This document shows, in pieces, positions 18,349-23,066 of a stretch of 64,000 nucleotides of DNA (the stretch's first letter is position 1; each line of letters begins with the position of its first letter). Source of the stretch: Escherichia coli (GTDB lineage: Bacteria > Pseudomonadota > Gammaproteobacteria > Enterobacterales > Enterobacteriaceae). A program made the position numbers and the translations under genes. The notes under the pieces were generated by a model. It was not told where the DNA came from and did not search any database. It was given only the letters and a program-made list of their open reading frames with translations. Location: NCBI RefSeq assembly GCF_003334385.1, contig NZ_QOWN01000018.1. One strand, written 5' to 3'.

Positions 18349-21300
18349 TTACTCAACAGGTTGCGGACGCGCAGGAGCGGCAGAGGCATGATGTGTTGCC
18401 GTATGACCACCTGCGGCACCTTTACCTTCGAAGGCAAAAGTAGGGCGCTGCCAGTCACTGTGACGCGGTGCCTCCGGAACATATTCCGGTGCTGGAGCGC
18501 GCGTCATTGGCGCGGTAGCGTGGTTATGCTCAACGGTGACCTCAGGTTCGACCGCAGCTACCGTTTCAACTTCTGCTGCGACTTCAGCGACTACTGGCGC
18601 GGCAGGTTGAGCAACAACTTCAGGTTCAGCAACTACAACCTCAGCAGTTTCGACAACTTCTTCAATATCTGCCGTCTCTTCCTGCGGTTCAACCACCGGT
18701 TCTGCTTGTTCTGCAACTTCCTGGGCTACGGCAACATCAGACTCGGTAATCACCTGCGGCTGTTCAGTTACCGCGGCAGCGATCACTTCAGGATGCGTCG
18801 TTTCAACCACTTCCGGTTGCGGTTCGGCAACCTGAACGGGGGCTTCTACGACACCGGCCACTTCTTCAACAACTGGCGCGCTAACAACCGGTTCGATAGC
18901 GGCGGCGACAGGGACCTCAGTCACCATCGGCTGCACATGTACTTCTTCCTGTTCGCGCTGCTCTTCAACCTGTACATCTTGCGGACGTACAATTGGATAG
19001 CGGATCCAGACTTTGCCAGAGGCCAGTTCCGGAGACGCGCACGCTACGGTCAACGGCATTGGCGACTGGGTTGGATAACGCTCGTCACGATAGCGACGAC
19101 GACGCTGACCACTTACGCGCAGGTGACGAGGCGAGCGGCGAGAACGACGCGGCATGCCACCGTTGTCACGGTTATCAGCATTGTTCTCTTCTTGCTGTTC
19201 TGGTGCAGTTTGCGCTACGACTGGCAGCGGGACTTTCACCAGTTCTGTGCGTGGAGCTGGCGCTTCCTGAACAATTGGTTCGGCAGCGACAGTTTCTTCA
19301 ACCACCGGTGCGACTACCGCTTCTTCGGCTACGCTTTGCTCGTAACGCACTTTCTGATTGAGCTGACGCTGTTTACGACGCGGCTGAACCGGACGTACAC
19401 GTTCTTCCTGTTCGGTTTCCTGAACAGATTGCTCTTCAACATTCAGCGCCTTCGCTTCTTGTTGCGCCTGACGTTTATCATCATTACGGCGGCGGCTACG
19501 TTCACGACGCGGCGCTTGCTGCTCGTCGGCGGTACGCGCTTTTTCCGTTACCTCAGCCTGCTGACGGCTCTCACGCGTCTCGGCAGTCTGCTGCTGTGCC
19601 TGGCGACGATTACGACGGTTTTCTTCGCGATTATCGCTGCCTTCAGTACGTTCACTACGGGTGTCGCGGCGCTCATTACGGTCACGGCGGTTGTTCTGAC
19701 GAGGCTTGCGACGATCCTGTTGACGTTCCGGTTTCGCTTCTGCTTTCGGTGCTGGTTGCTCGGTCGGTTTGGTTTCTTCACCACCGCTGAACAGCGCTTT
19801 CAGTGCGCCGAAGAAGCGGCTCAACAGCCCAGGTTGTGCAGGAGCTGCTGGTGTTGCCGGTGCAGCTTTCGGTGCTGGAGCTACAACAGGCGCGGCAGGT
19901 TCAGCTGGCGTTGGCGCAGGCGGCACATCCGGCATGGCAAAGGTTGCCAGCGCAGGTTGTTCCGGACGCTTACGTTCAGCGAACTCTTCTTCAGACGGCA
20001 GCGCCATCGCTTCTTCATGCAGCTTCGGCAGCATGTAGCTTAAGGTTGGGGTTTCTTCCCCTTTACGCACGCGCAGCACGTGGTAGTGCGGGGTTTCCAT
20101 CTGATCGTTTGGCACAATTACACAGCGCACACCGTCCTGACGAGTTTCAATGGCATTTACCGCAGAACGTTTTTCATTCAGCAGGTAAGAAGCGATTGGC
20201 ACAGGAACAATGGCGTGAACTTCCTGGGTGTTCTCTTTCAGCGCTTCTTCTTCGATCAGACGCAGAATAGAGAGCGACAGCGATTCGTTGTCACGCACGG
20301 TGCCAGTACCAGAACAACGCGGACAAACGTGATGACTGGATTCACCCAGTGATGGGCTCAGGCGCTGACGGGACATTTCCAGCAGGCCAAAGCGAGAAAT
20401 ATGGCTGATTTGAATACGCGCACGGTCCTGACGCACCGCTTCACGCAGACGGTTTTCTACCGCACGCTGGTGGCGTACTGGCGTCATGTCGATGAAGTCG
20501 ATAACAATCAGGCCGCCGAGGTCACGCAGGCGCAGCTGACGAGCAATCTCATCGGCAGCTTCGAGGTTAGTGTTAAACGCGGTTTCTTCGATATCGCCGC
20601 CGCGGGTCGCGCGTGCGGAGTTGATGTCGATGGCCGTTAACGCTTCGGTGCTGTCGATAACAATGGAACCACCAGACGGCAGACGAACTTCACGCTGGAA
20701 GGCGGACTCGATCTGTGACTCGATCTGGTAGTGGCTGAACAGCGGGATCTCGCCGGTGTACAGTTTGATTTTGCTGCTGAAATCCGGGCGACCTAATGCA
20801 GCGATATGCTGACGTGCCAGTTCGAGCACTTTCGGGTTATCGATAAGGATTTCGCCGATGTCCTGACGTAAGTAATCGCGGAATGCGCGAACGATTACGT
20901 TGCTCTCCTGATGAATCAGGAACGGGGCCGGGCGGCTTTCAGCGGCTTTTTTGATGGCTTCCCAGTGTTTCAGACGGAAGCTTAAATCCCATTGCAGCGC
21001 CTCAGCAGATTTGCCGACGCCAGCGGTGCGCACGATAAGCCCCATGCCTTCCGGCAGTTCAAGGCTTGCCAGTGCTTCTTTTAATTCGGTACGGTCGTCG
21101 CCTTCGATACGGCGAGAAATGCCACCCGCGCGCGGGTTGTTCGGCATCAGAACCAGATAGCTACCCGCCAGACTGATAAAGGTGGTTAATGCCGCGCCTT
21201 TGTTGCCGCGCTCTTCTTTATCGATCTGAACAATGACTTCCTGACCTTCACGCAACACATCTTTAATGTTGGGACGACCATGAGCACTGTAGTTAGCAGG

Positions 21301-21534
21301 GAAATATTCGCGGGCAATTTCTTTTAGTGGGAGGAAACCGTGACGTTCAGCGCCGTAATCAACAAAAGCAGCTTCCAGACTCGGTTCAATGCGGGTGATT
21401 TTACCTTTGTAGATGTTTGCCTTTTTCTGCTCGTGCCCTGGACTTTCGATATCCAGGTCATACAGACGCTGCCCATCTACAAGGGCAACGCGCAACTCTT
21501 CCTGCTGAGTTGCGTTGATTAACATTCTTTTCAT
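18349..21534 (-). CDS. rne: ribonuclease E
   Basis: 1061 aa ORF; N-terminal S1/catalytic region [30 protein letters not shown]..., Arg-rich and acidic low-complexity C-terminal scaffold. Confidence 0.97.
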
Positions 21535-21895
21535 CGTAACTTACTCATTATTCTTACATTGACGACTAAGCTGCGGGCAAAGTAACGCCTTTCCGGGTGT
21601 GAACCGATGGCCTCGTGTCTAGTCGCGTCGCCAACCTCACGGTTATCGTCAGCTCAAAGAGGCGCAGAGTGTCGGTTGCCCGTTTTTCATGCGGAAAAAC
21701 AGCGCAATTATCAAAGAAACAGACTGGGTATTACTCTCCAGAAATATTTCCATCTACCGGTAAGGACTGCAACCCGCAGCCCGCTAACTGCCTGAAAGAT
21801 CAATACGTCTTACGCCATTGCTGCGTGGATGATCGGTCGGGCAAAATGGGTTATTCCGTAAAATTTCTTGTTTTAACAAGGATGGACACGGAAAC
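21535..21895 (-). promoter_or_regulatory. rne long 5' UTR / autoregulatory leader (approximate)
   Basis: 572 bp non-coding gap upstream of rne start codon; K-12 rne is known to have a ~361 nt structured leader mediating RNase E autoregulation. Confidence 0.5.
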
Positions 21896-22106
21896 GGCCT
21901 CATTATTCCACTGCAAGCCTTGTTATAGCAAGATGACTTTTACCATTTATCACCCGCTTACTCACAGTTTTTTCACTTCTTGCTGGTGATTGGTTTAATA
22001 ACCATCAATAAAGTGATCACGCAGTGAAGTAATAAGGTGCAAAAGTAAATATAAGCATAGAAAAATGAGTGGCGCGAATCCTGTTGGCTAATTAGAATCG
22101 CCAACC

Positions 22107-23066
22107 ATGAAAACAGAGACTCCATCCGTAAAAATTGTTGCTATCACCGCTGACGAAGCGGGGCAACGTATCGATAACTTTTTGCGTACCCAATTGAAAG
22201 GCGTACCAAAAAGTATGATTTACCGTATTTTGCGTAAAGGCGAAGTGCGGGTGAACAAAAAACGTATTAAGCCTGAATATAAACTCGAAGCGGGTGATGA
22301 GGTGCGTATTCCACCGGTTCGCGTTGCTGAGCGGGAAGAAGAGGCGGTTTCGCCACATCTGCAAAAGGTGGCGGCGCTGGCGGACGTCATCTTATATGAA
22401 GATGATCACATCCTGGTGCTGAATAAACCTTCCGGTACGGCGGTACATGGCGGCAGTGGTTTAAGCTTCGGCGTTATTGAAGGTTTGCGGGCGTTGCGCC
22501 CGGAAGCGCGGTTCCTTGAACTGGTTCATCGTCTTGACCGGGACACCTCAGGTGTTTTGCTGGTAGCGAAAAAACGCTCGGCGTTGCGTTCTCTGCATGA
22601 GCAATTACGTGAAAAAGGGATGCAAAAAGATTACCTGGCGCTGGTGCGCGGTCAGTGGCAGTCGCATGTGAAGAGCGTTCAAGCACCGTTACTGAAAAAT
22701 ATTCTGCAAAGCGGCGAACGTATCGTGCGTGTGAGTCAGGAAGGCAAACCGTCGGAAACACGCTTTAAAGTGGAAGAACGCTATGCATTTGCCACCCTGG
22801 TGCGTTGTAGCCCGGTAACAGGGCGTACTCACCAGATCCGTGTGCATACACAATATGCGGGTCATCCGATTGCCTTTGACGATCGCTACGGTGACCGTGA
22901 ATTTGACAGGCAGCTCACTGAAGCAGGCACGGGATTAAATCGCCTGTTCCTGCACGCTGCAGCGTTGAAGTTTACTCATCCGGGGACCGGTGAGGTGATG
23001 CGTATCGAAGCTCCGATGGATGAAGGTTTGAAGCGTTGTTTGCAAAAGCTGCGTAACGCGCGCTAA
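22107..23066 (+). CDS. rluC: 23S rRNA pseudouridine synthase RluC
   Basis: 319 aa ORF with S4 domain N-terminus and HRLDRDTSG catalytic motif. Confidence 0.95.
   Translation: MKTETPSVKIVAITADEAGQRIDNFLRTQLKGVPKSMIYRILRKGEVRVNKKRIKPEYKLEAGDEVRIPPVRVAEREEEAVSPHLQKVAALADVILYEDDHILVLNKPSGTAVHGGSGLSFGVIEGLRALRPEARFLELVHRLDRDTSGVLLVAKKRSALRSLHEQLREKGMQKDYLALVRGQWQSHVKSVQAPLLKNILQSGERIVRVSQEGKPSETRFKVEERYAFATLVRCSPVTGRTHQIRVHTQYAGHPIAFDDRYGDREFDRQLTEAGTGLNRLFLHAAALKFTHPGTGEVMRIEAPMDEGLKRCLQKLRNAR

Follow-up and report, generated by a model that had tools for sequence, protein, structure and literature searches.

The divergent rne–rluC spacer of Escherichia coli: very probably a compact control region for rne and rluC, with the yceQ open reading frame as a by-product

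RNase E is said to feed back on its own synthesis by binding to hp2, a stem-loop in the 5′ leader of the rne mRNA, a mechanism reportedly described by Jain and Belasco in 1995, by Diwa in 2000 and by Schuck in 2009, and the two later works are said to assign the RNase E-sensing role to hp2. The leader is collected in Rfam as rne5 (RF00040). This leader, the rne promoter P1 and the mis-annotation of yceQ, an open reading frame (ORF) on the opposite strand, are all already known. A CRISPRi study offers cases that resemble yceQ, among them sroG/ribB and psrO/pnp: there, too, a gene seems essential in deletion collections since its removal takes away the promoter or leader on which an essential neighbour depends, and strand- or orientation-specific effects reveal the cause. 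yceQ differs in being a protein ORF antisense to the leader, whereas sroG and psrO are RNA genes on the same strand. Several enterobacterial ORFs carry the name DUF2655 at NCBI, and the ORF considered here is identical in coordinates and sequence to the K-12 entry. On the other side of the same spacer, rluC is counted among the “known leaderless genes” of E. coli (PMC8794815).

The window is the whole stretch of DNA that was analyzed, 64,000 nt of E. coli (assembly GCF_003334385.1, contig NZ_QOWN01000018.1). In it, rne (18349–21534, minus strand) and rluC (22107–23066, plus strand) are divergent and are separated by a spacer of 572 nt (21535–22106). At the far end of rne, the 3′ end of flgL carries, in the K-12 record, an annotated small RNA, FlgO (NC_000913.3, 1140986–1141063), just before the convergent 3′ end of rne. 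The spacer is 100% identical to that of W3110 and of other K-12-type genomes; the window is K-12-like, and the 572-nt query was found in 5426 of 5426 complete E. coli genomes. Across the Enterobacterales, rluC and rne were divergent in each of the 110 loci, among the matches listed, that yielded both genes; the spacer measured ∼552–600 nt in most of these loci and was longer where repeats had been inserted. When 99 spacers, each with 300 nt of either flanking gene, were aligned across species, conservation followed the RNA and promoter features and not the yceQ ORF, and positions 21968–22047 formed a variable, poorly conserved stretch. We conclude that the spacer is almost certainly a compact divergent control region, that its functional products are those of the minus strand together with the rluC start, listed as leaderless, and that the yceQ ORF is a by-product.

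The minus-strand leader is made up of the following parts.

21535–21895, minus strand: untranslated leader of the rne mRNA, 361 nt in length, cis element of the RNase E feedback (Rfam match, covariation and published length).
21854–21893, minus strand: first stem-loop domain, hp1 by order (projected Rfam consensus structure).
21788–21844, minus strand: second stem-loop domain, hp2 by order, with the invariant CAGCAAUGGCGUAAGACG (projected Rfam structure).
21568–21782, minus strand: large branched third domain, hp3 by order, with the closing long-range helix GGGCUGCGGGU/GCCCGCAGCUU (RNAalifold and projected structure).
21535–21567, minus strand: single-stranded tail, including the ribosome-binding region of rne (no pairs in the Rfam structure).

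The names hp1, hp2 and hp3, reportedly those of Diwa et al. 2000, were assigned by order along the leader, and we take the three domains to be those so named. The Rfam match to RF00040 (21559–21895, minus strand) scored 260.1 bits against a gathering threshold of 180 (E 5.7e-82). It spanned model positions 1–333 of 333 without truncation and ended, on the rne strand, 24 nt before the rne ATG (21534). The leader start at 21895 lies 361 nt before this ATG, and the published length of the rne 5′ UTR is 361 nt (PMC10989929).

The structure was examined by covariation, with the Rfam consensus projected on an alignment of 86 distinct Enterobacterales leaders. Pairing was observed in 88.2% of the cells, vs. 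32.5–44.6% when the 3′ partners were slid by 1–3 columns. Compensatory changes, on both sides of the pair, occurred in 44 of the 84 leader pairs; doubly changed cells numbered 390, vs. 95–148 in the slid controls, and none of 500 shuffles reached any of the five covariation measures. RNAalifold, run de novo on the 86 leaders, agreed in part with Rfam: its fold, too, had the closing helix of long range as well as the 3′ hairpin. Helices 1–2 (hp1) pair in 83% and 61% of the cells, with 9 of 11 pairs covarying, helices 3–6 (hp2) pair in 89–100%, and helices 7–14 (hp3) in 60–100%; within hp3, alignment pair 315/366 is divided between UA (53 leaders) and CG (33 leaders). The hp2 block is the best-conserved part of the spacer (0.96–0.98 identity in Enterobacteriaceae), the leader tail is conserved at 0.96–0.99 in the same family, and the invariant 18-mer CAGCAATGGCGTAAGACG occurs without mismatch in 120 or more genomes or loci of the Enterobacterales. 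The initial annotation had placed the rne leader inside the 572-bp spacer, and the rne5 match, the covariation and the invariant P1 promoter (see below) bear this out. The locus shares with RF00040 its position and strand relative to rne, the three-domain architecture and the invariant hp2 loop sequence, and no difference was found: the spacer holds the E. coli K-12-type sequence of the family.

In other genera, rne5 differs from this type by ERIC-like palindromes inserted in hp1 or in the apical arm of hp3 (helices 9–10), which is the variable part of that domain. These imperfect palindromes measure 89–128 nt, with one double copy of 252 nt, and were seen in the rne leaders of Citrobacter, Kluyvera, Pseudocitrobacter, Enterobacter, Erwinia and Winslowiella. 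They resemble ERIC/IRU repeats (5–10 mismatches to the 22-nt ERIC primers), and those of 108–128 nt folded with energies of −24 to −57 kcal/mol. Three independent insertion sites fall in the transcribed leader, at the equivalents of window positions 21753 (nine loci), 21857 (four loci) and 21732 (one locus); one locus, L105, has palindromes at the equivalents of both 21753 and 21857. At these sites in hp1 and in the hp3 apical arm, large hairpins can evidently be inserted and are tolerated by the rne leader.

Upstream of the leader lie a promoter, a candidate promoter and a double DnaA box.

21902–21931, minus strand: rne promoter P1, with −35 TTGCTA (21931–21926), an 18-nt spacer and a TG-extended −10 AATAAT (21907–21902) (promoter scan).
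22048–22078, minus strand: candidate upstream rne promoter, with −10 TATATT (22053–22048) and a start at ∼22041 (relaxed hexamer scan, 8 of 12 matches).
21946–21967, plus strand: double DnaA box tTTATCACCCgcTTACTCACAg (exact published ChIP-seq sequence located in the window).

The P1 hexamers match the consensus at 9 of 12 positions, and the −10 ends 7 nt short of 21895, the base at which the leader begins. Both hexamers are 100% conserved in 99 of 99 aligned genomes of the order, and a GACTTT block just upstream of P1 is equally invariant in these genomes. The candidate upstream promoter, a weak site, would start about 146 nt upstream of P1; perhaps it is among the extra promoters of rne that Ow et al. 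reportedly described in 2002. Further rne promoters probably lie, like the DnaA double box, upstream of P1. The rne promoter has already been placed inside yceQ by Goodall 2018 and by Price 2016 (10.1101/038851).

A DnaA-box pair is defined by two 9-mers, close together and resembling TTATNCACA, to which DnaA binds in vivo. The double box in the spacer is a DnaA ChIP-seq site labelled “(yceQ) rne” in one study, with 5-fold enrichment (PMC11317965). It falls within the yceQ ORF, 51–72 nt upstream of where P1 starts transcription, and is conserved in core Enterobacteriaceae and not in other families. A possibility is that the double box couples the activity of rne P1 to the replication-initiation state.

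Two natural IS alleles, with the elements sitting at the variable stretch, were examined. In the viable isolate E. coli O121 strain 201805972, ISEc11 is inserted at the equivalent of 21970–21972, 3 nt past the DnaA boxes and in yceQ codon ∼101, so that the C-terminus is rewritten and the frame becomes one of 157 aa. In strain M217, IS1 is inserted at the equivalent of 22048–22056, and everything upstream of 22056 is cut off from rne. Since these insertions occur in viable isolates, ∼75–160 nt upstream of P1 are enough for viability.

The opposite edge of the spacer belongs to rluC.

22069–22106, plus strand: rluC core promoter, with −35 GTGGCG, an 18-nt spacer and −10 TAGAAT (22093–22098) (scan and conservation).

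This promoter is conserved at 0.97–1.00 across the order. Between TAGAAT and the ATG of rluC (22107) there are 8 nt, the predicted transcription start (∼22105) lies 2 nt before the ATG, and rluC has no Shine–Dalgarno sequence (SD; anti-SD energy +0.2 kcal/mol). With the leaderless E. coli mRNAs (rhlB, rluC, racR and hprR as well as dicA and cohE), rluC shares a conserved −10 near the ATG and the lack of an SD; this likeness concerns the rluC edge of the spacer, where the start is a predicted one, and not the yceQ ORF. Given the published listing of rluC as leaderless, there is no plus-strand leader to be fitted into the spacer. Two order-wide invariant blocks were observed in 22052–22106, TAAGCAyAGAAAAA.G.GTGGCGC and TTTAGAATCGCC..CCATGAAA, and they fit the rluC promoter. 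The former is longer than the −35 hexamer requires, and may also serve the upstream rne promoter on the other strand. Two further candidates were discarded: an RpoS SELEX peak that is listed beside yceQ has no relevance, for its position is within rluC, and an Rfam mir-316 match at 21956–22034 is a chance one (20 bits vs. 80, E 0.88).

Across the leader and P1, on the plus strand, runs the ORF.

21615–21989, plus strand: ORF of 124 aa from GTG 21615, in all likelihood spurious (ORF list).

The K-12 record NC_000913.3 annotates its last 321 nt (21669–21989, GTG start, 106 aa) as yceQ, b1085, “DUF2655 domain-containing protein”. In 20 sampled E. coli RefSeq/PGAP records, no gene was annotated under the spacer match, save an IS1 transposase in one of them. 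The ORF had been described as antisense to the leader, and the coordinates agree: 21615–21895 overlaps the leader, and the remaining 94 nt cover rne P1 and the DnaA double box. Among 2000 dinucleotide-preserving shuffles of the spacer, an ORF of 124 aa or longer turned up in 1.35%, and one of 106 aa or longer in 3.9%; the length of the ORF is only mildly unusual here and is unremarkable genome-wide. A longer chance antisense ORF, of 560 aa from a TTG start, was noticed opposite the rne coding sequence (18361–20043, plus strand).

The 106-codon frame is kept only in E. coli and E. albertii, and two other Escherichia lineages lack its stop codon. Premature in-frame stops were found in 95 of 95 non-Escherichia genomes, most of which also have indels not divisible by three; in Citrobacter, at 88–89% DNA identity, the frame is already broken by frameshifts and stops. 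Conservation of the frame across Enterobacteriaceae had been proposed as a check on the ORF, and the outcome is that the frame is lost outside Escherichia. Codon-position entropy gave 0.42/0.34/0.46 for yceQ (p 0.065 for a third-position excess), vs. 0.06/0.02/0.70 for rne (p 3e-40) and 0.19/0.09/1.03 for rluC (p 3e-37).

The ORF had no match in Pfam-A even at E ≤10 and none in NCBIfam at E ≤1, and comparison with PDB sequences returned only insignificant matches to antibody light chains (E 0.3–0.7). A single-sequence AlphaFold2 model had a pLDDT of 37 and no confident fold, which is weak evidence. The database “homologs” of yceQ vary from 68 to 156 aa and from 28 to 98% coverage, and their ends wander between frames. 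All that they share is a 25-residue stretch, which results when hp2 and the closing helix are translated in antisense. Likewise, the ORFs named DUF2655 are fragments of 68–119 aa in different frames that have only the antisense translation of conserved RNA in common, and the RefSeq name “DUF2655” could not be traced to any current Pfam-A or NCBIfam model. yceQ would be open by chance, and parts of the “protein” would look conserved as the antisense translation of invariant helices and promoter hexamers. The initial annotation held the ORF to be more likely non-coding than a protein gene; the loss of the frame, the lack of codon periodicity and the lack of a family match uphold it.

The accompanying claim that the ORF has no convincing ribosome-binding site was only partly right. 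GTG 21615 has no SD, and 39% of random 20-mers do as well as its anti-SD energy of −3.3 kcal/mol. The annotated GTG 21669, however, has a moderate GAGG, in the form of AAGAGG 6 nt upstream, with −5.8 kcal/mol, a value reached by ∼7–13% of random 20-mers. The anti-SD energy at the rne ATG is −2.2 kcal/mol; since the SDs of rne and rluC are weaker than that of either yceQ start, SD strength is uninformative at this locus. Furthermore, the conservation of the SD-like GAGGC is explained by the RNA, for one of the covarying leader helices has the complement of GAGGC as its 5′ arm.

Ribosome profiling, which had also been suggested as a check, is already published: Price et al. obtained no YceQ reads in three growth conditions, and the absence is limited to those conditions (10.1101/038851). 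In the same work, transposon insertions in yceQ were found only where the transposon promoter can drive rne, and the authors concluded that yceQ is not protein-encoding (10.1101/038851). Goodall et al., by TraDIS, reached the same conclusion and attributed the “essential” call of Keio and PEC to removal of the rne promoter. The strand asymmetry of CRISPRi in yceQ was explained by Rousset et al. as a block of rne transcription. The Salmonella yceQ ortholog is an annotated pseudogene, yet it is under selection in transposon screens.

During genome recoding, three yceQ codons resisted the changes TCG>AGC or TCA>AGT (PMC7614783). These are most likely yceQ codons 2, 7 and 15 (21672–21674, 21687–21689 and 21711–21713), an assignment made from their spacing, which is 15 and 24 nt here vs. 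14 and 24 in the figure legend. In the leader structure, 21672–21674 pairs with 21605–21607 and 21687–21688 with 21694–21695, and 21711–21713 is unpaired. That synonymous recoding was not tolerated points to a constraint at the level of the nucleotide and not of the amino acid; the failed codon swaps presumably alter the rne leader.

We consider it very unlikely that the plus strand of 21600–21990 is expressed, be it as an Escherichia-specific de novo micro-protein or as a cis-antisense RNA that tunes RNase E autoregulation. In the former case, yceQ would be a genuine and very young protein gene, restricted to Escherichia, overprinted on the rne leader in antisense and expressed at a low level or conditionally. 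The ORF is indeed open in E. coli, E. albertii and two more Escherichia lineages, but at 96–98% DNA identity an open frame is expected within the genus without selection; substitutions in Escherichia are non-synonymous as often as synonymous (3 vs. 1 in E. albertii), and the stop is lost in two lineages. The ORF is also longer than those in 96–99% of the spacer shuffles (∼98.6% for 124 aa) and is still annotated in NC_000913.3, yet it has no codon periodicity, no family match and a pLDDT of 37. The GAGG 6 nt before the annotated GTG is well spaced and reaches −5.8 kcal/mol; the SD-like GAGGC, however, complements one arm of a leader helix, and in any RNA made from the plus strand it would be paired, and no plus-strand promoter-like site was detected upstream at the scan threshold. 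The experiments point the same way, since no ribosome-profiling reads were obtained in three conditions (10.1101/038851), transposon and natural IS insertions in the ORF are tolerated, and synonymous recoding is not (PMC7614783). A young protein gene is, on this evidence, extremely improbable.

If the ORF is irrelevant, the plus strand of 21600–21990 could still give rise to an antisense RNA that codes for no protein, pairs with the rne leader and so, in the manner of an excludon or cis-antisense regulator, modulates RNase E synthesis. Of 58 E. coli RNA-seq samples, at least 50% show the 16 divergent excludons that ExcludonFinder lists, rne–yceQ among them, and this listing implies a degree of plus-strand signal. 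The method, however, builds transcription units around annotated genes, and the call depends on yceQ being one of these, with which the rne 5′ UTR overlaps by construction, and for this reason we rejected it as decisive evidence of plus-strand transcription. The promoter scan found no plus-strand sigma-70-like promoter upstream of the region, and rluC is transcribed from a promoter of its own close to the ATG, in the direction leading away from the region. The minus-strand RNA fully accounts for the conservation and the covariation, and insertions of transposons that carry an outward promoter are tolerated in one orientation only, the rne-sense one. An antisense regulator is accordingly a highly improbable account of the region.

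With the spacer read as a divergent control region, RNA polymerase would start at P1 (∼21895) and produce the 361-nt structured leader, in the order hp1, hp2, hp3 and ribosome-binding tail, up to the rne ATG at 21534. RNase E would, according to the literature, bind the hp2 stem-loop and speed the decay of its own mRNA, and the level of RNase E would thereby be kept constant.

Both the Keio and the PEC list gave yceQ as “essential”, and it is still a CDS in the K-12 reference record; it was included among the essential genes in which AGG codons were replaced, and it appears in papers on essential-gene and target lists. The only new biological question here is the link between DnaA and rne, and it has been raised already in the literature. 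The yceQ case is mainly one of annotation hygiene, with a caution for essential-gene lists and genome recoding. The three “synonymous” yceQ swaps that failed in Syn61-type recoding illustrate the practical cost of mis-annotation, and reading the region as the leader and promoters of an essential RNase, together with an rluC start listed as leaderless, prevents such errors.
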